This document shows positions 4,372-18,871 of a stretch of 20,000 nt of DNA, one piece after another. Source of the DNA: Promethearchaeum syntrophicum (GTDB lineage Archaea; Asgardarchaeota; Lokiarchaeia; Sigyniarchaeales; Promethearchaeaceae); NCBI RefSeq assembly GCF_008000775.2, contig NZ_CP042905.2:2816998-2836997 (forward strand), read 5' to 3'. How positions within the stretch are numbered: the stretch's first letter is position 1; each line of letters begins with the position of its first letter. The position numbers and the translations under genes were made by a program. The notes under the pieces are model-generated. The model was given only the letters and a program-made list of their open reading frames with translations, was not told the origin of the DNA and made no database searches.

Positions 4372-4923
4372 ATGAATGATACTCAAATAGATTTTATCTT
4401 TAAAATAACAGTAATTGGAGATAGTGGTGTAGGAAAAACATCGTTAATTAAACAATATACTCAGAGTTCATTTGAAAATGATTATATTTCTACAATTGGG
4501 GCCCAATTTTCTATATATAATGAAGAGATAGATGGGGGTAAATTTAAGTTATTTTTATGGGATATCGCTGGTGAAAAGGATTTTAAATTCCTACGCGCTC
4601 AGTTTTATACAAAAAGTAAAGCCGCAATTATTGTTTATTCTCTCGAGGAAAATGATCATGGAAGAAAAAGCTTCAAGCACATAATTGAATGGTATAAGGA
4701 TATTAAAGAATATTGCGGAGAAATTCCCGTTATCATTTTTGCTAATAAAGTTGATTTAATTGATGAAAGAAATTTCGATGATACGGAGGTACAGAAATTA
4801 GTTAAGGAAAATAACTTTTTAGGAATTTATTATACTTCCGCGAAAACTGGTAAGAAGGTAACTGAAGCTTTCCAATACATAATTAAATTTCTTTATAATC
4901 AGGCTAAGAATAAGATTTATTAA
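4372..4923 (+). CDS. Ras-superfamily small GTPase, Rab-like
   Basis: G1 GDSGVGKTS, switch I YISTIGAQF (Rab-like TIGxxF), G3 WDIAGEK, G4 NKVD, G5 TSAKTG. Size is 183 aa. There is no C-terminal prenylation Cys motif. Confidence 0.9.
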   Translation: MNDTQIDFIFKITVIGDSGVGKTSLIKQYTQSSFENDYISTIGAQFSIYNEEIDGGKFKLFLWDIAGEKDFKFLRAQFYTKSKAAIIVYSLEENDHGRKSFKHIIEWYKDIKEYCGEIPVIIFANKVDLIDERNFDDTEVQKLVKENNFLGIYYTSAKTGKKVTEAFQYIIKFLYNQAKNKIY

Positions 4924-5205: not shown

Positions 5206-5310
5206 TTTGTGTCTCCGTTCTTTTTTTTTTAATTTAAATTATTAACAAAATTAGTAATATTAAAACTATGGGATAAATTTGAGAGATTTAATGAAATAAA
5301 AGAAGGAGAT

Positions 5311-5425
5311 ATTCTCAGTTTGCATTTTCGCAATATTTGGGATATAACTATTCTGCAACGCATTTCGCCTTATCTTCAGTGTTCGGGATGGGAACTGGAG
5401 TTTTTCGAAACCTATGACCGAGAAT
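5311..5425 (-). rRNA. rrf: 5S ribosomal RNA (about 115 nt)
   Basis: The reverse complement reads ATTCTCGGTCATAGG...CCAGTTCCCATCCCGAACACTGAAGATAAGG...TTGCA...TGCAAACTGAGAAT. It contains the universal 5S core (GGTCATAG, CCCATCCCGAAC, GAAG-TAAG). Terminal helix I pairs ATTCTCGG with CTGAGAAT, helix II pairs GTTTCG with CGAAAT, and helix III pairs CAGT with ACTG. Confidence 0.85.
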
Positions 5426-12653: not shown

Positions 12654-12751
12654 TTAATTATTACTACAAATTCCAAATAATTTTGATAATTAATACAACC
12701 TCGTCTATTATAAAAATTATTATAAAAATTAGAATCTAATAGTAACTGAGA

Positions 12752-14395
12752 ATGAATAATCTAACAATCACAATTATAATTAATCTTATGGTTTCATTGG
12801 TTTTTATACTATATTCTTTAATACTATATCAATCTCAAAGAAAAAAACAAGAAATTACCGCAGATATTTCAAAAAAAGAGAAGGAATTTCAAACTTTAGA
12901 TGATTACTTCAAAAAGATGGAAGTACTTGTAATTCGAAAAAAAATATCTATGATTGGTCCTCCGAAAAAAGCTCCTCCGATAAAAAAGGAGCGAAGTCCG
13001 CTAGTTATTCAAAAAGATGAGGAATTTATAATTAAAGATGGGGAAAATCTCTTAAATAATCTTGAAAAAGAGTTAAAGGATGCAATGCCAAGAAATGCAA
13101 TCGAATATAAAAGAGACTTAAATACCCTATTAGAAGTTATTTCTAGTTTAGAATCTATGGATGCTTCTCATTATGGAGGTTTAACAGAAGAACCAGAAGA
13201 CATGGGGAAGGGAATGCTTTATGATTCAATATCCAGAAAATTAGATAAAATTATTAAAATATATAAATTTGATGAGTTATATTTCATTCAAGCAGAAAAA
13301 TTGGAGAATTTCGCATTTAAACAAATAAAAAGATTAGAACATAAAGATTTTGAGAAAACACTTGAGATTATGAAAGAAATTGGAAAAATCAATCAAATTA
13401 TTGAAATTGGGCCGCATATCAAGCTGCTAACATTTCATGAAAATCTAAAAGTAAATACTTCTGAAAAAGTTATAATTTCCCTTTATACAGAACATAATCT
13501 GTCAAAAATTGAAGATATTCAAAAAAGAACCTTGTGGAAACCTAGTTTTTTAAATGCTGTTTTACAAAAAATGCAGTCAAAAAAAATATTGGATTTAGAT
13601 TTGCAGGAGCAAATAATTAGTATTAAGGGAATAATATCATCATCCGAACGTTTTGAAAGAAATCAAAAATTAGAGGAAATCATTAAAAATAAAATCAAAA
13701 AGGAAAAAGATAGTAAAAAACTCCTGGGTGATCAACAGCAACATAATATTACCTTAAATAGGAAAAAATCACGAATACAGCAAGAAGAATTAAAAGTTCA
13801 ACAAACGGAATTACTAGCAGAAGCGAAAAAGGAAGCAAAAAAACTATCAAAAATTCATCGAAAAGAAGCAGAAAAACAATCAAAAATCGAAGATAAAGAA
13901 AGAAAAAAGATATTAATAAGCGAAAAAAGTGTTACTGAAGAGGGAGAAAAAACGAACGAAAATCAAAAATTGGTTAAAGAAATTGAAAAGATTTTCAAAA
14001 ATATTAGTAAAATTACAGGTGGAATTATTACTTTCTCTACCTTGCTTAAAATTCTTAAAAATGGGGCATTTCCTAAATTAAAAAAAAATGAATTGTTAAA
14101 TTCTATTAAATTTCTGAAAGAGAAAGAGAGTATTATTGATGAATTATCATTTTCCGGAGTTAAAATTTATAGTTTTGGTGATGCCGTAATTGATGATGAC
14201 ATGAAACGACTAATAGAACAATTTGTTGAAGATGAAGAATTGAATGAGGAGGAAATAGGAGTTGTTATTGATGATTGGGGTAGTAAAAAGATAAAAAAGG
14301 TGATTAAAAAATTCGAGGATCAAAACCTTATCAAAAAAGATAAGAAAAATCGCTATTACTTACCGGGGCTAATCAATGCAAAAAAAAAAAAATAA
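12752..14395 (+). CDS. Membrane-anchored protein with two EAP30 (ESCRT-II Vps22/Vps36)-like tandem winged-helix modules separated by a K/E-rich coiled coil
   Basis: N-terminal TM ITIIINLMVSLVFILYSLILY. C-terminal module (nt ~14010-14380): GGIITFSTLLKIL..ELLNSIKFLKEKE..SGVKIYSF..DDWGSKKIKKVIKKFEDQNLIKKDKKNRYYLPGL follows human SNF8/EAP30 as I recall it (GGLITLEEL..DDLIRAIKKLKALG..GGTYLIQS..KWETERARQVLEHLLKEGLAWLD..HYWLPALF). A weaker second copy lies at nt ~13200-13640 (..FEKTLEIMKEIGKINQIIEIGPHIKLLTF..LSKIEDIQKRTLWKPSFLNAVLQKMQSKKILDLD). Confidence 0.6.
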   Translation: MNNLTITIIINLMVSLVFILYSLILYQSQRKKQEITADISKKEKEFQTLDDYFKKMEVLVIRKKISMIGPPKKAPPIKKERSPLVIQKDEEFIIKDGENLLNNLEKELKDAMPRNAIEYKRDLNTLLEVISSLESMDASHYGGLTEEPEDMGKGMLYDSISRKLDKIIKIYKFDELYFIQAEKLENFAFKQIKRLEHKDFEKTLEIMKEIGKINQIIEIGPHIKLLTFHENLKVNTSEKVIISLYTEHNLSKIEDIQKRTLWKPSFLNAVLQKMQSKKILDLDLQEQIISIKGIISSSERFERNQKLEEIIKNKIKKEKDSKKLLGDQQQHNITLNRKKSRIQQEELKVQQTELLAEAKKEAKKLSKIHRKEAEKQSKIEDKERKKILISEKSVTEEGEKTNENQKLVKEIEKIFKNISKITGGIITFSTLLKILKNGAFPKLKKNELLNSIKFLKEKESIIDELSFSGVKIYSFGDAVIDDDMKRLIEQFVEDEELNEEEIGVVIDDWGSKKIKKVIKKFEDQNLIKKDKKNRYYLPGLINAKKKK

Positions 14396-15056
14396 AAGCA
14401 CTGCAAATCCTATTCCTCGAGATATTCTGATTTCTTTACTAAAACAATATTGGAGTAAAACATATATTCAAGATGCAACATTTTCTTTTTTACGCAACAT
14501 TTCTAATGACTTCATAGAAGATATTGAAAAAAAATCAAGTTCCAAAAAAGATAAACTTCTAATCGAGATGATTAAAGTCTTAAAAGGAGAACAGAGTCAT
14601 AAAGCGTTGGAAGCGTTAACAAATGCATTAATAAAGGTGGATAATTGGAAACCCAGTAAGGACCCAAATTCAAATACAGTTTTTGCTGAAGAGATTTTAC
14701 TATTAATAAAAGATTTAGATCAATCAGGAATTGATATTCTTCTTGACGCGCTAATAGATGATTCAGATTTTGACAATCGATTAACAAAAATTAATGAAAA
14801 CCCCAATAATTCGGATAGATTATTACTTGAGCGTTCTCTCTCTAATAAAGATCTTCTAAACTCATTTAAAGTGTTAAAAAATAGAAGATTAAAAGAAGAA
14901 ATTATCAAAAATGGTTATTACGCTCTTGATAAAATTACGGAACGTTTAAAATTTTATCAAACTGGTAGAGTTTATGAAAAATTAATCACGATTTATAAAT
15001 TACTGGAGGAGAAATATTCAATTCAAAAAAAAACGGGGTTTAGAATTTTATTATAG
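14376..15056 (+). CDS. Hypothetical all-helical protein, overlapping the upstream gene across an A13 tract
   Basis: 226-aa ORF in the +1 frame relative to 12752-14395, with a 20-nt overlap. HEAT-like helical segments (KALEALTNALIKV, GIDILLDALIDDSD). No recognisable catalytic motif. Confidence 0.55.
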   Translation: MQKKKNKSTANPIPRDILISLLKQYWSKTYIQDATFSFLRNISNDFIEDIEKKSSSKKDKLLIEMIKVLKGEQSHKALEALTNALIKVDNWKPSKDPNSNTVFAEEILLLIKDLDQSGIDILLDALIDDSDFDNRLTKINENPNNSDRLLLERSLSNKDLLNSFKVLKNRRLKEEIIKNGYYALDKITERLKFYQTGRVYEKLITIYKLLEEKYSIQKKTGFRILL

Positions 15057-15111: not shown

Positions 15112-16347
15112 CTATTCTTTTATTCCTAAAACAAAATTTGCCAGATTTTTATGAGCATTTTCAATAGAAACTGTTCCTTTTGGAGGGTTTTTAAATCCGT
15201 AGGAAGATATTTCGTCAATGGCTCCTGAAGATCCTTGATGAAGTGCAATTTTGGTTGCTCGAATTACATCAGCCAAAATTGCTCCTCCATTTGGACCATC
15301 TTTAGTCTGAATTTTAAGATCTACTATAATTTCTGAACCCAAAAAACCATTACCAACTATCCATAGCATAGAATTTCTTGAATTTTTCATATGAGGAACA
15401 TAATCAGAAGTTCCTGCTACAATAGGCGCGTTTAGATTCAATGAGGATTTCACTGATTTACTTTTAATTTCGCGTTTAATTCCGCGAGATCGATGAATTG
15501 TATTTAAAGATTCGGCACCCCCACCGACATCAAGAGCATAGCTTTCCTTTATTTCCACGCCTTGATCTAGCATTTGCTTTAGAATTCTTTTATGAACAAT
15601 TGTTGCTCCAAATTGGTCTTGAAGATCATCACCTATTAAAGGTAAACCAGCATCATGGAATTTACGAGCATAATTTTTATCTACTGCAATTTTAGTAGGT
15701 GTTGCATTAATAAATGCACAACCTGCTTGAAGAGATTGTTCCGCATAGAATTTTACTGCTTCATCGGCACCCGAAGGTAATAAGCATAAAACAATTTCTG
15801 TTTCACTAAGTTTTAATTCATTTATAATATTAGCAGAACCTATTTCAGCAGGGGCAATAAGCTTACGGGTCTGATCTATTACTCCATCCAATATATTTCC
15901 CATTTGGATTTTTACATCTAATATAGGCACTTTAGCTACAATTTCAAGATCATTTTCATTAATTGCTTCACTTAAATCTTTTCCAACTTTTTTTATCGAT
16001 ATATCAAAAGCTGATACGATTTCAATATCAGAAATATGATAACCTGCAAATGTTGGATGAAGTAATCCAATATTATTACTGCGGGATTTATAATATTCAA
16101 TTCCTTGAATAAGCGATGAAGCCGCATTTCCAACACCCACTATAGCGACTTTTATTTTTTCTGGCATAATTTTCACTTTATTTCGTTTTTTTATTCGAGC
16201 TATTGTCATTCTACTGATTGAAAAGAATACCATTGTTTCATCATAGGTATGGGTTTCAAGATATCGGAGAACTTCATCGTCTCGAAATTTTTTAGCCACA
16301 TTATTTTTAAAAAGAGATAGAAAAAAAAGCTTATGTGTTACTGACAA
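15112..16347 (-). CDS. ino1: myo-Inositol-1-phosphate (inositol-3-phosphate) synthase, with an in-frame 60-aa N-terminal extension
   Basis: IKVAIVGVGNAASSLIQGIEYYK is the NAD-binding N-terminus of archaeal/actinobacterial-type MIPS. Further matches: LLPSGADEAVKFYAEQSLQAGCAFINATP, GDDLQDQFGATIVHK, and the SKSVKSSL..SDY region. The conserved core starts at the internal ATG at 16167 (MPEKIKVAIVG), which is an alternative start. Confidence 0.9.
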   Translation of the reverse strand: MSVTHKLFFLSLFKNNVAKKFRDDEVLRYLETHTYDETMVFFSISRMTIARIKKRNKVKIMPEKIKVAIVGVGNAASSLIQGIEYYKSRSNNIGLLHPTFAGYHISDIEIVSAFDISIKKVGKDLSEAINENDLEIVAKVPILDVKIQMGNILDGVIDQTRKLIAPAEIGSANIINELKLSETEIVLCLLPSGADEAVKFYAEQSLQAGCAFINATPTKIAVDKNYARKFHDAGLPLIGDDLQDQFGATIVHKRILKQMLDQGVEIKESYALDVGGGAESLNTIHRSRGIKREIKSKSVKSSLNLNAPIVAGTSDYVPHMKNSRNSMLWIVGNGFLGSEIIVDLKIQTKDGPNGGAILADVIRATKIALHQGSSGAIDEISSYGFKNPPKGTVSIENAHKNLANFVLGIKE

Positions 16348-17345
16348 AAAAAAAAGTTACTATTTCTTCATTAGCTGTTACAATTATCAACAAACCTTTT
16401 ATGCTTCAAATTAAAAAAAAAAATATGTCTAATGTGAAAAAAAAAACCCCCCATACCATAAAGACGAAAACTTCAAAGAAAACTTCTTCAAATACCAAAA
16501 ATATTAAGGGAAAAAAAACATCAAAAAAATCAACTAAGAAGAAATCAATCCAATCAAAAAAACCAGCGAAGAAAATGGAAAAATTTATCGAAAATAATCG
16601 GGAAACTTCGAAAAAATTAAAAAGTGAGACAATTTTAAACTCTCAAGTTCAAATTTCAAAAAAAACTCATAGGAAAACTAAAGGACCTAATACCGATAAA
16701 CTTAAGACTGAAAATAGGGAAGACTTAGTTGCAAGGCATTTACTTAGATTATATCAATTTATCAAAGAAAATGATCCAATTAATGAACAAGAATTACTCG
16801 AAGAAATGGATAAAGGTACCCCCAACGAAGAATTAAGGCTCAAAATTACCCAATTAGAACTTGAAATTGAATCCATTTATGAAGAAAATCATGCTTTACG
16901 ACAAAATGCACTTCAAACACAAATTGAAGCAGAAGATCAAATAGAATCTACTGAATTTGAAAATCGTGAATTAAAAGAAAAAGTGAGAGAGATCAATGAT
17001 TATGTCAAAGCAGAATTAGAAAAAAGAGCTAAAAGATTTGAAATTATAATTGAAGATTTACGAGCCAGATTGCGGGGGGCCTTAGAAAAAAATGAAAAAA
17101 TTACTGAAGTAAGTGAGAAAATTGAATATATGCAACAACAAGTAACTTCCCTTTTTGATCAAAATGACACATTAACGAACAAAAACAACAAATTGGAACA
17201 AAAATTGGGAAATTTAAATGAAAAATTTGAAGATTCGCAACAAAATAACCTGAGATTGGAATCTAAGAATAAAGAACTCCATAAGAAGGTTGAACTTCAA
17301 AAATTAGTTATAGATGGTTATAAACGAAAAGAAATGAAACATTAA
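16335..17345 (+). CDS. Polybasic-tail plus long coiled-coil protein (hypothetical)
   Basis: The N-terminal ~90 aa are extremely K/S/T-rich (KKKTPHTIKTKTSKKTSSNTKNIKGKKTSKKSTKKKSIQSKKPAKK). Heptad-rich E/K/L/Q sequence follows to the C-terminus. The GTG start overlaps the MIPS ORF on the other strand, so ATG at 16401 or 16425 is the more likely start. Confidence 0.6.
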   Translation: MLLTKKKVTISSLAVTIINKPFMLQIKKKNMSNVKKKTPHTIKTKTSKKTSSNTKNIKGKKTSKKSTKKKSIQSKKPAKKMEKFIENNRETSKKLKSETILNSQVQISKKTHRKTKGPNTDKLKTENREDLVARHLLRLYQFIKENDPINEQELLEEMDKGTPNEELRLKITQLELEIESIYEENHALRQNALQTQIEAEDQIESTEFENRELKEKVREINDYVKAELEKRAKRFEIIIEDLRARLRGALEKNEKITEVSEKIEYMQQQVTSLFDQNDTLTNKNNKLEQKLGNLNEKFEDSQQNNLRLESKNKELHKKVELQKLVIDGYKRKEMKH

Positions 17346-17360
17346 AAAATAAAATTCCCT

Positions 17361-17936
17361 CTAATCAAATTTTTTTTTCCATTCTTTTATCTTCTTAAGC
17401 AAATCTAGAATGAATTCTTCTTTCTCCTTCTCCGAAAATTCAGAATCCGGCTTAATTTTTCGCTCAAATGATCCTAACTCAAATAAAATTTTATGCCCAC
17501 CTGTCAAAACAAATAAATCTTCTTTGGCTTCTTTAATAACTTGACTTAATTCATGTAATGAAAGATTTTTTTTACTTATCTTCTCTTGACATAATTCTAA
17601 GATTTGCTGTGGATTTTCAAAAGTTTTCTTGTTTGACATTGTTAATATGCCTTTTGAAGATAATTCTTCCAATTTGGAAGTCAGAATGTTTCCCATTGAC
17701 TTTACTTGTCCCATTTCAGCAAGAATTTCAGATTTAAACTTGTTTTCTTCTTGTAACTGATTTTTAAGGCTTTTAATGTTGATAATTTCTTTTTCAACCT
17801 TATCAATTTTCTCAGTTAAGATATTTAATGTATGTTTCATTTCACCAATTGATTGGATCAATTCTAACCCAAATTTCTGCAGAATATTCCCAAAACTATC
17901 AATTTTCTCTTCAAAAGTTTTTTGATTTTCTCCCAT
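17361..17936 (-). CDS. Coiled-coil protein (hypothetical), divergent from the longin-GTPase gene
   Basis: 191-aa ORF. The N-terminal ~100 aa are heptad-like (LNILTEKIDKVEKEIINIKSLKNQLQEENKFKSEILAEM). No TM segment. A 65-bp divergent intergenic region separates it from 18002. Confidence 0.55.
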   Translation of the reverse strand: MGENQKTFEEKIDSFGNILQKFGLELIQSIGEMKHTLNILTEKIDKVEKEIINIKSLKNQLQEENKFKSEILAEMGQVKSMGNILTSKLEELSSKGILTMSNKKTFENPQQILELCQEKISKKNLSLHELSQVIKEAKEDLFVLTGGHKILFELGSFERKIKPDSEFSEKEKEEFILDLLKKIKEWKKKFD

Positions 17937-18001: not shown

Positions 18002-18871
18002 ATGATCAAACATGTGAACATCCTAACCCTTGATGGTAAATCCCTTCTTTTTCGTGAATACGGCGCAACTAAAGTTGATCAAGATTTATTGGCAGGATTC
18101 ATGAGTGCATTTAGTGGATTTATGAAAGAAATCTCCCGATCTGAAATAAAATCAACAGTTACAGGTAATTCAAAATTTATTTATAGCTTTACAGATCAGA
18201 TAATGATAGTAATTTGTACAGATATTAAAGATAATGAAGAGGAGATATATCCAATTCTTGAGACAATTTTCTCCCAATTTTTAGAAAAATACAGTGATCT
18301 CTTTAAAAATAATAAATGGGATGGTGAACGGACCATTTTCAAAGAATTCAAAGAGAATGTTGATAAAATCGTGTTAGGACCAATAAAAGTTTCAATTTTA
18401 GGATACGGTGGTGTTGGAAAAACCACTTTAACCAAACTAATTATCGGGGAAGAAATAAATTTAGAATATGTACCAACAATTACTGCAGATATTGCTACTT
18501 TTGATAAAATGGGAAAACGCAGTATTGTGTTATGGGATTTTGCGGGCCAAATCCAGTTTACCGATTTATGGGACTCACTTTTAAAAGAAACCAGAATAGT
18601 TTTGTTGGTAACAGATTCATCGTATAAAAACGTTCAAGATACCAAAAAAATCATGGAGAAATTTATTGAAAAGGATTCCAATATGTTAATAATTGGAATA
18701 GCAAATAAACAAGATTTACAAAACAAATTATCAACGAAATTCGTTGAAAAGATTTTGAATGTTCCAACGTTCGGCATGATCGCGATAAATCCGAACTATA
18801 GGATAATGATTCACGAAATTTTGAACGAATTCATTGAGAAGATTAATAAAATTGATGGATTCATTGATTAA
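18002..18871 (+). CDS. Fusion of an N-terminal longin/roadblock-like domain and a Ras-superfamily small GTPase
   Basis: Residues 1 to ~125: HVNILTLDGKSLLFREYG....LLAGFMSAFSGFMKEISRSEIKSTVTGNSKFIYSFTDQIMIVICTD, a beta-beta-alpha-beta-beta-beta pattern typical of the longin/roadblock (SNARE-like) fold. Residues ~129-289 carry G1 GYGGVGKTT, switch I VPTITADI, G3 WDFAGQ and G4 NKQD. Confidence 0.8.
   Translation: MIKHVNILTLDGKSLLFREYGATKVDQDLLAGFMSAFSGFMKEISRSEIKSTVTGNSKFIYSFTDQIMIVICTDIKDNEEEIYPILETIFSQFLEKYSDLFKNNKWDGERTIFKEFKENVDKIVLGPIKVSILGYGGVGKTTLTKLIIGEEINLEYVPTITADIATFDKMGKRSIVLWDFAGQIQFTDLWDSLLKETRIVLLVTDSSYKNVQDTKKIMEKFIEKDSNMLIIGIANKQDLQNKLSTKFVEKILNVPTFGMIAINPNYRIMIHEILNEFIEKINKIDGFID

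Follow-up and report, generated by a model that had tools for sequence, protein, structure and literature searches.

Analysis of the window, a 20,000-nt stretch of the Promethearchaeum syntrophicum MK-D1 genome, revealed that the product of DSAG12_03078 consists of an N-terminal transmembrane (TM) helix, a disordered linker, a full Vps22-type EAP30 domain, a long charged segment (helix or linker) and another tandem winged-helix core of Vps22 type (Table 1). We hold this architecture and the homology of its domains with high confidence, and the protein is a new domain architecture within the known EAP30 family. The ORF was confirmed exactly as an earlier sequence-only reading had delimited it, and its product is 100% identical to a protein annotated as hypothetical. 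A literature query with the locus tag returned no match, and the membrane-anchored double-EAP30 arrangement was not found in the searchable published Asgard ESCRT inventories. The earlier reading had proposed two Vps22/36-like modules in one chain; the two modules were borne out by predicted fold, profiles and Pfam-positive relatives, but both lie much nearer Vps22 than Vps36. Because of this resemblance, "two Vps22-type modules in one chain" is a better wording than "Vps22 + Vps36 in one chain".

Table 1 Features of DSAG12_03078 and their positions in the window.
Feature	Residues	Position	Strand	Basis
Complete ORF, DSAG12_03078		12752..14395	+	547 aa, stop codon included
N-terminal transmembrane helix	~4-26	12761..12829	+	Kyte-Doolittle mean 2.54, RKK after segment
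Juxtamembrane linker	~31-87	12842..13012	+	low confidence, pLDDT 38-52; poorly conserved
EAP30-like module 1	~88-296	13013..13639	+	AF2 fold, Foldseek, hhalign, Pfam in relatives
K/E/Q-rich helix	297-387	13640..13912	+	continuous predicted helix, pLDDT 68-88
Short disordered hinge	~388-401	13913..13954	+	pLDDT <50 at residues 386-401
EAP30-like module 2	~402-543	13955..14380	+	pLDDT 80-89, Foldseek, hhalign, HMMER

Domain organization and EAP30 homology

The hydropathy of the N-terminal segment (19-residue mean) stands alone, all other segments reaching 1.1 or less, in agreement with the single TM helix recognized earlier. The N-terminus MNNLTITIIINL is kept in relatives, and an equivalent hydrophobic segment was present in 20 of the 22 full-length family representatives. 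From the positive-inside rule, the predicted topology is N-out, C-in, which would leave the remaining protein in the cytoplasm. The following juxtamembrane linker contains a proline-rich stretch, PPKKAPPIKK.

Module 1 begins with two N-terminal helices. The invariant MGKGMLYDSIS motif lies on the third helix, and two winged helices (WH-A and WH-B) follow, which were modelled with AF2 pLDDT of 85-92 (residues ~150-296). In the stretch at ~150-296, which had been read as a second copy, helices and strands come in the same order as in module 2. The start of the module shifted to around residue 88, since the two extra helices there match the helical N-terminal part of Vps22 in Foldseek and in the Pfam alignment of the relative P0118. 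In the model of module 2, only one helix precedes the winged helices, followed by WH-A, with TGGIIT where Vps22 has NGGLIT, and by WH-B, which closes with YYLPGL; predicted secondary structure at residues 402-543 agrees with the C-terminal tandem winged-helix pattern noted before, and the terminal signature W509...L526...Y535..P538-G539-L540 is invariant or nearly so in the family. The helix that joins the modules (residues 297-387) has 22 K and 14 E among its 91 residues, 49% of which are charged. This segment had been described as a K/E-rich coiled coil: the composition and the continuous helix hold, whereas a simple heptad count gave a hydrophobic a/d fraction of 0.38-0.62, with 0.62 only around residues 346-380; the heptads are weak, and a coiled coil is one possible reading. 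The segment may serve as a spacer, be a single alpha-helix or form a weak coiled coil. The inter-module linker varies from ~80 to ~310 residues among family members, and relatives carry large insertions at the hinge. The full-length AF2 model predicted no confident packing of module 1 against module 2 (pTM 0.38); the AF2 models were built on shallow alignments of 12-15 sequences.

In separate AlphaFold models, both modules are confidently predicted to be tandem winged helices, and structural comparison showed that Vps22 (human, yeast) is the top PDB match for each of them (Foldseek E 2.5e-6 to 1.5e-4). For the module 1 model, the top three matches were all Vps22 (3cuq_A, E 2.5e-6; 2zme_A, 7.1e-6; 1u5t_A, 9e-5), and the predicted structure aligned collinearly with 212-218 of the 213-219 Vps22 target residues at TM scores of 0.51-0.56. 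Module 2 matched Vps22 at E 5.4e-6, and the match of the full-length model to Vps22 (rmsd 2.3-2.7 A over 143-147 columns) was attributable to this module. Other tandem winged-helix proteins scored lower than human VPS22 (E 2.5e-6 to 7.6e-6): E values were 0.04-0.085 for Vps25, 1e-4 to 5e-4 for Rpc34, which also superposed with a poor rmsd, and no better than 4e-3 for SelB and Nse1.

Profile-profile comparison with hhalign gave the same picture. Module 2 matched eukaryotic Vps22 (96.9%, E 1.9e-10), hsVPS22 (97.7%, E 1.7e-12) and Pfam-positive Asgard EAP30 proteins (99.2%, E 5.5e-20), and module 1 matched the same targets at 84% (E 7.5e-6), 84.5% (E 7e-6) and 96.3% (E 1.6e-9), respectively. The two modules also matched each other (97.6%, E 3.3e-12, 22-sequence alignments; reversed-control score 12). 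Reversed controls had probabilities below 1%; reversed and column-shuffled controls scored 11-24, as against 42-124 for the real comparisons, and human VPS25 was at background (0.2%) for both modules. Both modules are therefore nearer to EAP30-type subunits than to other tandem winged-helix families such as Vps25, Rpc34, SelB and the KITE proteins, and these profiles and predicted folds indicate homology of each module to EAP30 and of the two modules to one another. Neither outcome that the earlier reading had named as refuting it, the lack of a significant profile match for either module or a predicted fold other than a tandem winged helix, was observed. The divergence of module 1 is strong, with 15-16% identity to any EAP30: FIQAEKLE replaces the GG(L/I)I motif, and its top-conserved motifs (MGKGMLYDSIS, FIQAEKLE and LEHxDF) are family-specific with no Vps22 counterpart. 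In module 2, sequence signatures of Vps22 are still clear.

A direct scan with Pfam EAP30 (PF04157; gathering score, 26.8 bits), which had been suggested for residues ~150-300 and 420-547, was silent: no match was found at E<=10 in the full protein, in residues 150-297 or 420-547, or in the 14 closest relatives. The EAP30 link consequently needs profiles or structure. Two relatives that share the architecture did exceed the gathering score (P0119, 31.1 bits; P0103, 28.6 bits), each with two matched stretches, and the EAP30 match spans the module 1 region in P0103 and P0118. The remaining Pfam/NCBIfam matches of the protein, its sub-regions and the 14 closest relatives (DUF4277, MarR, TrmB and BlaI-type) were all below threshold and were rejected as uninformative about identity, the target being too divergent. 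An hmmsearch of narrow module profiles against PDB sequences recovered no ESCRT-II chain.

Family distribution and genomic neighbourhood

An exhaustive HMMER search of 1.84 billion sequences, using the profile of module 2 alone, yielded 46 representatives, ~25 of which contain the TM helix, module 1, linker and module 2. The family was found in Promethearchaeum, Lokiarchaeum ossiferum and Harpocratesius, and thus in both cultured Lokiarchaeia lineages; the TM-anchored protein with two EAP30 modules is conserved across Lokiarchaeia. At the tail of the list were the Pfam-positive EAP30 proteins P0115, P0123, P0125 and P0127, reached at whole-library E values of 4e-8 to 6e-4. Since a search for the canonical Vps22 of MK-D1, seeded with P0115, gave only Helarchaeota proteins, one of them outside an ESCRT cluster, we refer to this reference set as Pfam-EAP30-positive Asgard proteins and not as canonical Vps22. 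In a neighbour-joining tree that included stand-alone EAP30 proteins, module 1 formed one clade in 99 of 100 bootstraps; the sister of module 2 could be either module 1 or the stand-alone EAP30 proteins. Two parallel subfamilies appeared in module 1 and in module 2, and this shared division indicates that the two-module arrangement predates family diversification.

Canonical Asgard Vps22 and Vps25 genes usually cluster with ESCRT-III and Vps4 (PMC9192718). The Pfam families of the neighbours agreed with the earlier statement that the window contains no Vps4, ESCRT-III, Vps25 or Vps28 gene, and no ESCRT-related Pfam family occurred among neighbours in the window or in relatives' loci L001-L003, L006-L008 and L010; genomic association with Vps25, ESCRT-III and Vps4 genes was absent at all of these loci. 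In Lokiarchaeia, the double-EAP30 gene lies near genes for inositol-1-phosphate synthase, two unknown proteins and an Arf-like GTPase. These syntenic genes lie on opposite strands, not in a co-directional operon, and the synteny may only mirror relatedness, as the most divergent locus, L010, no longer shows it. An overlapping downstream 226-aa ORF was considered as a conserved, possibly Vps25-like partner and rejected: it occurs only in the genus Promethearchaeum and has no winged-helix-type Pfam signal. The stand-alone EAP30 protein P0138 of Helarchaeota is also encoded outside an ESCRT cluster, beside longin-like and Roadblock-like genes. MK-D1 has its own VPS22, VPS25 and VPS36-like protein (bioRxiv 10.1101/2025.11.01.685982), and for this reason the DSAG12_03078 paralog may have diverged to another role.

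Possible roles of the double-EAP30 protein

Taken as a whole, the data are explained best by a Lokiarchaeia two-module EAP30 protein acting as a membrane-resident ESCRT-II-like adaptor, which we consider somewhat probable; an ESCRT-linked mechanism in particular is possible but tentative. Through its TM helix, the protein would be kept at the cytoplasmic side of the cell membrane, where it would serve as the adaptor, recruited to the membrane with no need for a lipid- or ubiquitin-binding domain. The Vps22-type WH-B surface of each module may be a docking site for a Vps25-type subunit or, directly, for an ESCRT-III subunit. The WH-B of Vps22 and that of Vps36 in ESCRT-II each bind one Vps25, which recruits ESCRT-III (PMC11188069, PMC9192718). 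In a single-chain ESCRT-II role, one polypeptide would supply the two arms that eukaryotes make from Vps22 and Vps36, and that other Asgard archaea reportedly make from a Vps22 homodimer, and the long flexible linker may let the distal module reach off the membrane or fold back on module 1. A bolder and more doubtful proposal, which we regard as unlikely, is a self-sufficient membrane-integral ESCRT-II, in which a single chain with two non-identical EAP30 stalk modules would bring in two Vps25/ESCRT-III arms and start ESCRT-III filaments directly on the lokiarchaeal cell membrane without ubiquitin or ESCRT-I input; protrusions, vesicles and division sites would be candidate sites. If true, archaea would offer a precedent for the asymmetric two-EAP30 stalk (Vps22 + Vps36), which was thought to date only from eukaryogenesis.

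The gene neighbourhoods are also compatible with a neofunctionalised EAP30 paralog, that is, a membrane-tethered scaffold of ESCRT-II ancestry with non-ESCRT partners and another function, although we consider this rather unlikely. It would account for the lack of ESCRT linkage at any locus examined and recalls P0138, likewise outside an ESCRT cluster and beside longin-like/Roadblock-like genes; components of small-GTPase, longin or Roadblock trafficking-like systems, or of lipid-biosynthetic machinery, would be candidate partners. The conserved synteny with inositol-1-phosphate synthase, the two unknown proteins and the Arf-like GTPase points the same way, but the genes involved are on opposite strands, the synteny is gone at L010, and no partner was identified. 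Similarly, the family-specific top motifs of module 1 suit a changed function, whereas module 2 retains clear Vps22 signatures.

A membrane-tethered nucleic-acid-binding regulator, whose winged helices would bind DNA or RNA and which would either anchor nucleic acid at the membrane or be freed by proteolysis as membrane-bound transcription factors are, is improbable in our judgement: the weak matches to MarR, SarR, ZitR, MecI/BlaI and TrmB-type wHTH that suggest it all fall short of curated cutoffs (E 0.001-0.4) and extend over one winged helix only, whereas the best whole-module structural and profile match is Vps22, a protein-binding tandem winged helix. In WH-B of module 1, the helix predicted to be the recognition helix, PSFLNAVLQKMQS, is poor in basic residues, and the basic residues of the module 2 helix are not kept in distant relatives; the protein is lysine-rich, but this fits a genome of 27-33% G+C. 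Highly improbable is an unrelated lineage-specific membrane protein whose EAP30 resemblance is generic winged-helix likeness or a modelling artefact. The silent Pfam EAP30 scan of the protein and its 14 closest relatives, the PDB sequence search and the shallow AF2 alignments would be expected of such a protein, but the controls (11-24 against 42-124, with VPS25 at background), the HMMER link, which joins module 2 to Pfam-positive EAP30 proteins by itself, and the Pfam-positive members P0119 and P0103, which exceed the gathering score, largely refute it, as does the independent ranking of Vps22 as top structural match for each module.

The double-EAP30 family, which we favour as a membrane-resident ESCRT-II-like adaptor, bears on how Asgard ESCRT is recruited to membranes and on the origin of the asymmetric Vps22-Vps36 stalk in eukaryogenesis. 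According to published inventories, each Asgard genome has a single Vps22/36-like gene (Hatano et al. 2022, PMC9192718). They take Vps4 neighbourhoods as their starting point, so an EAP30 paralog outside the cluster and unflagged by Pfam would be missed. The family adds two membrane-fixed EAP30 modules per genome, and it does so in Promethearchaeum and Lokiarchaeum, the two Lokiarchaeia genera in culture. The protein is thus within reach of localisation studies, pull-downs and heterologous recruitment assays such as have been performed for MK-D1 ESCRT-II, among them one in HeLa cells. If Vps25 or ESCRT-III is bound, the protein would provide a lipid- and cargo-independent way to nucleate ESCRT-III; if neither is bound, the EAP30 module would have been reused for other membrane-proximal functions before eukaryotes.

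Comparison with known systems

The stalk of the Y-shaped eukaryotic ESCRT-II complex is formed by Vps22 and Vps36, both EAP30-type modules. Similarity to Vps22/SNF8/EAP30 (PF04157; 3cuq_A, 2zme_A, 1u5t_A) lies in the helical N-terminal part, in the two winged helices after it, which are placed alike relative to each other, in the shared YY/LY helix, in the GG(L/I)I(T/S) strand of WH-A in module 2, and in the W...L...GL..D....Y(W/Y).P pattern closing WH-B. However, eukaryotic Vps22 is a soluble protein of ~230-260 aa with one module and pairs with Vps36, whereas DSAG12_03078 is a single TM-anchored chain of 547 aa with two modules, has 15-21% identity to Vps22 and a sequence under the Pfam threshold, and its gene is unlinked to ESCRT genes. 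Vps36/EAP45 (2zme_B, 3cuq_B), the second stalk subunit, shares the EAP30-family tandem winged-helix core, and its GLUE domain, which targets the membrane, is functionally analogous to the TM anchor; DSAG12_03078 has no GLUE or PH domain and attaches by the TM helix, in contrast to the lipid binding of Vps36. The hhalign match to Vps36 was much weaker than that to Vps22 (module 2, 36.9%, E 3.6e-4; module 1 at background), and the Foldseek superposition was at an rmsd of 12-18 A. CdvA of Thermoproteota is similar in concept, as a membrane-associated recruiter upstream of ESCRT-III in archaea. It combines a PRC barrel, a coiled coil and an E3B peptide and binds the membrane peripherally; its fold is unrelated to EAP30 and it contains no EAP30 module.

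In Euryarchaeota, Vps4/ESCRT-III neighbourhoods encode the arCOG09748 and arCOG11741 proteins, in which helical/coiled-coil segments are combined with Vps22-like winged helices, duplicated in arCOG11741 behind an N-terminal helical domain (Makarova et al. 2024, PMC11188069). They are not described there with a TM anchor or two full tandem winged-helix modules, and this description sets them apart from DSAG12_03078. The closest counterpart by lineage is the Asgard Vps22/36-like protein, of the same phylum and with the same EAP30 tandem winged-helix core. In published accounts, Asgard Vps22 is soluble and single-module, usually clustered with Vps25, ESCRT-III and Vps4 (PMC9192718, PMC11188069), and a fusion to a steadiness box is frequent (Makarova et al. 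2024, PMC11188069; asCOG cog.002769). A homodimer of it reportedly stands in for the pairing with Vps36 (PMC9192718), which would give two EAP30 cores per complex, as in the single chain of DSAG12_03078. Compared with this published Asgard Vps22, the DSAG12_03078 family is an additional, TM-anchored two-module paralog encoded outside the cluster.

Two EAP30-like modules in a membrane-anchored chain

The target ORF, lying in a window with a G+C content of 26-34%, was 100% identical to DSAG12_03078, annotated as a 'hypothetical protein' of P. syntrophicum MK-D1, the first cultured Asgard (Lokiarchaeial) archaeon. The sole strongly hydrophobic segment of the protein, at residues ~4-26 (Kyte-Doolittle mean 2.54), is followed by RKK, in agreement with the single N-terminal TM helix proposed in the sequence-only reading; the positive-inside rule suggests an N-out, C-in orientation, which would place every module in the cytoplasm. 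The conserved C-terminal block ended in W509...L526...Y535-x-x-P538-G539-L540, and the central block (~150-300) was conserved even more. Residues 297-387, between the modules, were predicted to form one unbroken helix, 49% charged; the charged character claimed for this stretch held, but 'coiled coil' is not an established label for it, a simple heptad count having shown weak heptads. The relative P0015 (580 aa; 2.2-kb contig) begins exactly at the invariant MGKGMLYDS motif, without the TM segment and N-terminal helices, which could reflect a clipped contig or gene call, or hint at an alternative start at the conserved internal Met 151 yielding a soluble isoform.

A word-indexed homolog search with the target revealed only 15 relatives, from Promethearchaeota or metagenomes, with identity down to 37%. 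The Pfam scan, proposed earlier as a check on each module separately, gave even at E<=10 no EAP30 (PF04157) match to the whole target, to either module or to any of the 15 close relatives, but only sub-threshold generic wHTH matches (MarR, TrmB, SarA/Rot, penicillinase repressor). No ESCRT-II chains were recovered when narrow family profiles were run against the full set of PDB sequences, and no NCBIfam model matched the target family. As the simplest refutation test, the Pfam result would sink the EAP30 idea, yet it is a weak test because the target is so divergent.

For profile-profile comparison, the reference sequences of yeast Vps22 and human SNF8, VPS25 and VPS36 were each checked against the PDB and agreed with its chains over the full length; the Vps22 reference alignment consisted of human SNF8 and 63 Pfam-annotated yeast homologs. 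With narrow alignments, module 2 matched Vps22 with a probability of 91.7% (E 7.7e-7, score 47; best of 40 column shuffles 22, reversed profile 14), and the module 1 score of 29 (best shuffle 19, reversed profile 24) was only suggestive of a link to Vps22. Later profiles, built from 22-sequence alignments with more diverse members from the exhaustive search, matched eukaryotic Vps22 at 96.9% (E 1.9e-10) for module 2 and 84% (E 7.5e-6) for module 1, and four Pfam-positive Asgard EAP30 proteins at 99.2% (E 5.5e-20) and 96.3% (E 1.6e-9), respectively. Modules 1 and 2 matched each other at 97.6% (E 3.3e-12); the positive control, Asgard EAP30 against eukaryotic Vps22, reached 98.9% (E 1.2e-17), and every reversed control stayed below 1%. 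All alignments were collinear and spanned both winged helices, WH-A and WH-B (SNF8 residues ~92-242). The C-terminal module is EAP30-like, as had been claimed, and a second, more diverged copy is present, although its start, placed at residue ~150, moves to near residue 88.

Comparison with single human sequences on an equal footing revealed a match of module 2 to VPS22 (97.7%, E 1.7e-12), a lower one to VPS36 (36.9%, E 3.6e-4) and background to VPS25 (0.2%); module 1 matched VPS22 (84.5%, E 7e-6), with background against VPS36 and VPS25. Since VPS22 was preferred over VPS36 and VPS25, both modules are of the Vps22 type in particular, rather than tandem winged helices of a generic kind. The earlier parallel with ESCRT-II is corrected in this respect: the chain holds two Vps22-type modules, not Vps22 plus Vps36.

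An AlphaFold2 model of the full-length target, built on a 15-sequence alignment, was confident at residues 150-296 (pLDDT 85-92) and 402-543 (pLDDT 80-89), and both regions showed the helix/strand order of two consecutive winged helices. The five top Foldseek PDB matches to this model were ESCRT-II EAP30-type subunits: human VPS22/SNF8 (3cuq_A, E 5.4e-6; 2zme_A, E 7.6e-6) and yeast Vps22 (1u5t_A, E 1.5e-4), with 18-20% identity and an rmsd of 2.3-2.7 A across 143-147 aligned columns, and the human VPS36 chains 2zme_B and 3cuq_B. Other tandem-wH proteins (Rpc34, Nse1, SelB, Vps25) ranked lower, with worse E-values and large rmsd. We regard the architecture and EAP30 homology of the target as highly probable; the earlier observation was confirmed, and its interpretation supported with corrections to the module 1 start, the module type and the coiled coil.

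Family members, distribution and evolution

An exhaustive HMMER search with the module 2 profile against 1.84 billion representatives (E<=1e-3) recovered 46 proteins. Local HMM and hydropathy analysis showed one architecture in ~25 representatives of 520-770 aa: a TM at the N-terminus, then module 1 (~120-320), a linker whose length varies from ~80 to ~310 residues, and module 2 at the C-terminus; the TM segment was found in 20/22 full-length representatives analysed, and a second, weaker match of the module 2 profile within one protein, falling in module 1, was frequent. The Pfam EAP30 gathering score (26.8 bits) was exceeded by the TM-bearing two-module members P0119 (31.1 bits) and P0103 (28.6 bits), with two matched stretches each, and in the tail of the hit list by P0115 (39.7), P0127 (79.1), P0125 (50.7) and P0123 (34.0). 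In P0118 the Pfam alignment took in module 1 together with its N-terminal helices, reaching from position 38 to position 215 of the 219-position profile. The family is thus tied to EAP30 by both HMMER-level and curated evidence, though the target itself lies below threshold.

Six metagenomic proteins (P0099-P0102, P0106, P0110), soluble and 166-180 aa long, make up a separate family in which a short charged N-terminus precedes one tandem-wH core resembling module 2. The module 2 profile matched them at E 2e-20 to 1e-11, and P0102 reached 21.7 bits against Pfam EAP30; they could be related to module 2 or act as its stand-alone partners. P0126 (312 aa) shows another unusual EAP30 architecture: its N-terminus is a TPR repeat region, joined to an EAP30-like tandem-wH core that scores 17.3 bits against Pfam EAP30 and 35 bits against the Vps22 HMM built here.

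Named family members came from Promethearchaeota and Lokiarchaeota MAGs. Among GTDB species genomes, a pattern-limited scan, whose count is therefore a lower bound, located the gene in three uncultured archaea, two Promethearchaeum species, Lokiarchaeum ossiferum B35 (37% identity) and Ca. Harpocratesius repetitus (30%). The two-module architecture is conserved in Lokiarchaeia and occurs in cultured organisms. In an approximate NJ tree built from 65 tandem-wH cores (141 columns), module 1 formed a clade on a long branch (99/100 bootstraps), and module 2 fell among stand-alone EAP30-like proteins without a resolved position. The subtrees of both modules split into the same two subfamilies; the two-module chain, which may have arisen either by duplication within the gene or by paralog fusion, must therefore be old compared with the radiation of the family.

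Genomic surroundings

No ESCRT components were encoded in the window, as had been noted, or beside the homolog in any locus examined. The downstream order of target (+), inositol-1-phosphate synthase (-), ~300-aa unknown (+), ~190-aa unknown (-) and Arf-like GTPase (+) was common to one uncultured genome and to Promethearchaeum, L. ossiferum and Harpocratesius; this block, conserved across Lokiarchaeia, is present in the window and at the loci L001, L006, L007 and L008, and was lost at L010, the most divergent locus. Because the genes are not co-directional and the order is lost at L010, this synteny may mirror relatedness, not function.

Features in the window
Feature	Positions	Strand	Remarks
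Ras-family small GTPase	4372-4923	+	Pfam Ras E 5e-41
5S rRNA gene	5310-5425	-	Rfam RF00001, 54.4 bits; surrounding stretch otherwise ORF-poor
Tandem duplication of 12-mer ATTATAAAAATT	12707-12730		22-45 nt upstream of target start codon; TATA-box-like
Target ORF	12752-14395	+	547 aa
Overlapping downstream ORF	14376-15056	+	226 aa; ATG 14376; overlaps target stop codon
Run of 13 A	14380-14392		target C-terminal KKKK and stop (14393-14395) meet 226-aa ORF start
Inositol-1-phosphate synthase	15112-16347	-	
Protein without assignment	16335-17345	+	336 aa
Protein without assignment	17361-17936	-	191 aa
Arf/Ras-like GTPase	18002-18871	+	~125-aa N-terminal extension

The 226-aa ORF was confined to the genus Promethearchaeum, with a copy of 54% identity in L001, and did not follow the homolog in L. 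ossiferum, Harpocratesius or L007; it had no family match, looks helical and gave a weak ARM-like hit. Its frame is +1 relative to the target, and L001 repeats this offset with a 14-nt overlap. The slippery 13-A homopolymer at this gene junction could allow transcriptional or translational slippage, or sequencing-length errors. As a TATA-like element, the duplicated 12-mer could imply a short or absent leader, though it could also arise by chance in 30% G+C DNA. The window contained no tRNA genes. Ras-family small GTPases, of which one is encoded here, are eukaryotic signature proteins typical of Asgard genomes. On a Helarchaeota contig (L011, 8001-8711), the 236-aa Pfam-positive EAP30 protein P0138 lies remote from ESCRT genes, in the vicinity of Roadblock/LC7-like and (faintly) longin-like genes; in Lokiarchaeia and Helarchaeia it may therefore be common for EAP30 paralogs to stand alone, off ESCRT clusters.

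Comparison with ESCRT-II

According to Hatano et al. 2022, an Asgard genome carries a single gene of the Vps22/Vps36-like type and lacks a Vps36 homologue, and Vps22 forms homodimers (PMC9192718). Makarova et al. 2024, cataloguing from Vps4 neighbourhoods, described Vps25 variants and an Asgard Vps22 that carries a fused steadiness box, but no TM-anchored two-module protein (PMC11188069). A 2025 preprint works with an OB-fold VPS36-like protein, VPS22 and VPS25 from MK-D1 and mentions no transmembrane form (bioRxiv 10.1101/2025.11.01.685982), and Liu et al. named a 'fusion of two EAP30/Vps37 domains' solely among arrangements that are shared with eukaryotes. The locus tag was not found in searchable literature text. 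Within the limits of the literature searched, the TM-anchored two-module EAP30 architecture appears undescribed, in line with the novelty first claimed for it; with the target, a known family gains a new domain architecture, testable in cultured organisms.

To the domain composition, homology, conservation and membrane-anchor signal demonstrated here, a mechanism can be added tentatively. In ESCRT-II, the WH-B domains of Vps22 and Vps36 bind a Vps25 apiece, and Vps25 in turn recruits ESCRT-III (PMC11188069, PMC9192718). By analogy with EAP30 roles in ESCRT-II, the favoured reading of the target is a membrane-resident adaptor offering two Vps22-type modules, although we consider this somewhat doubtful. 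Against it stand the lack of genomic linkage to ESCRT genes, the strong divergence of module 1, the separate ESCRT-II set already in MK-D1 and the lack of predicted packing between the two modules in the full-length model (pTM 0.38). The main rival is a neofunctionalised membrane scaffold, which seems rather unlikely; a nucleic-acid-binding role, weighed between the generic wHTH matches and the specific preference for VPS22, is a minor rival and quite improbable. The membrane-resident adaptor would correspond, within one polypeptide, to the Vps22-Vps36 stalk or to the Asgard Vps22 homodimer.
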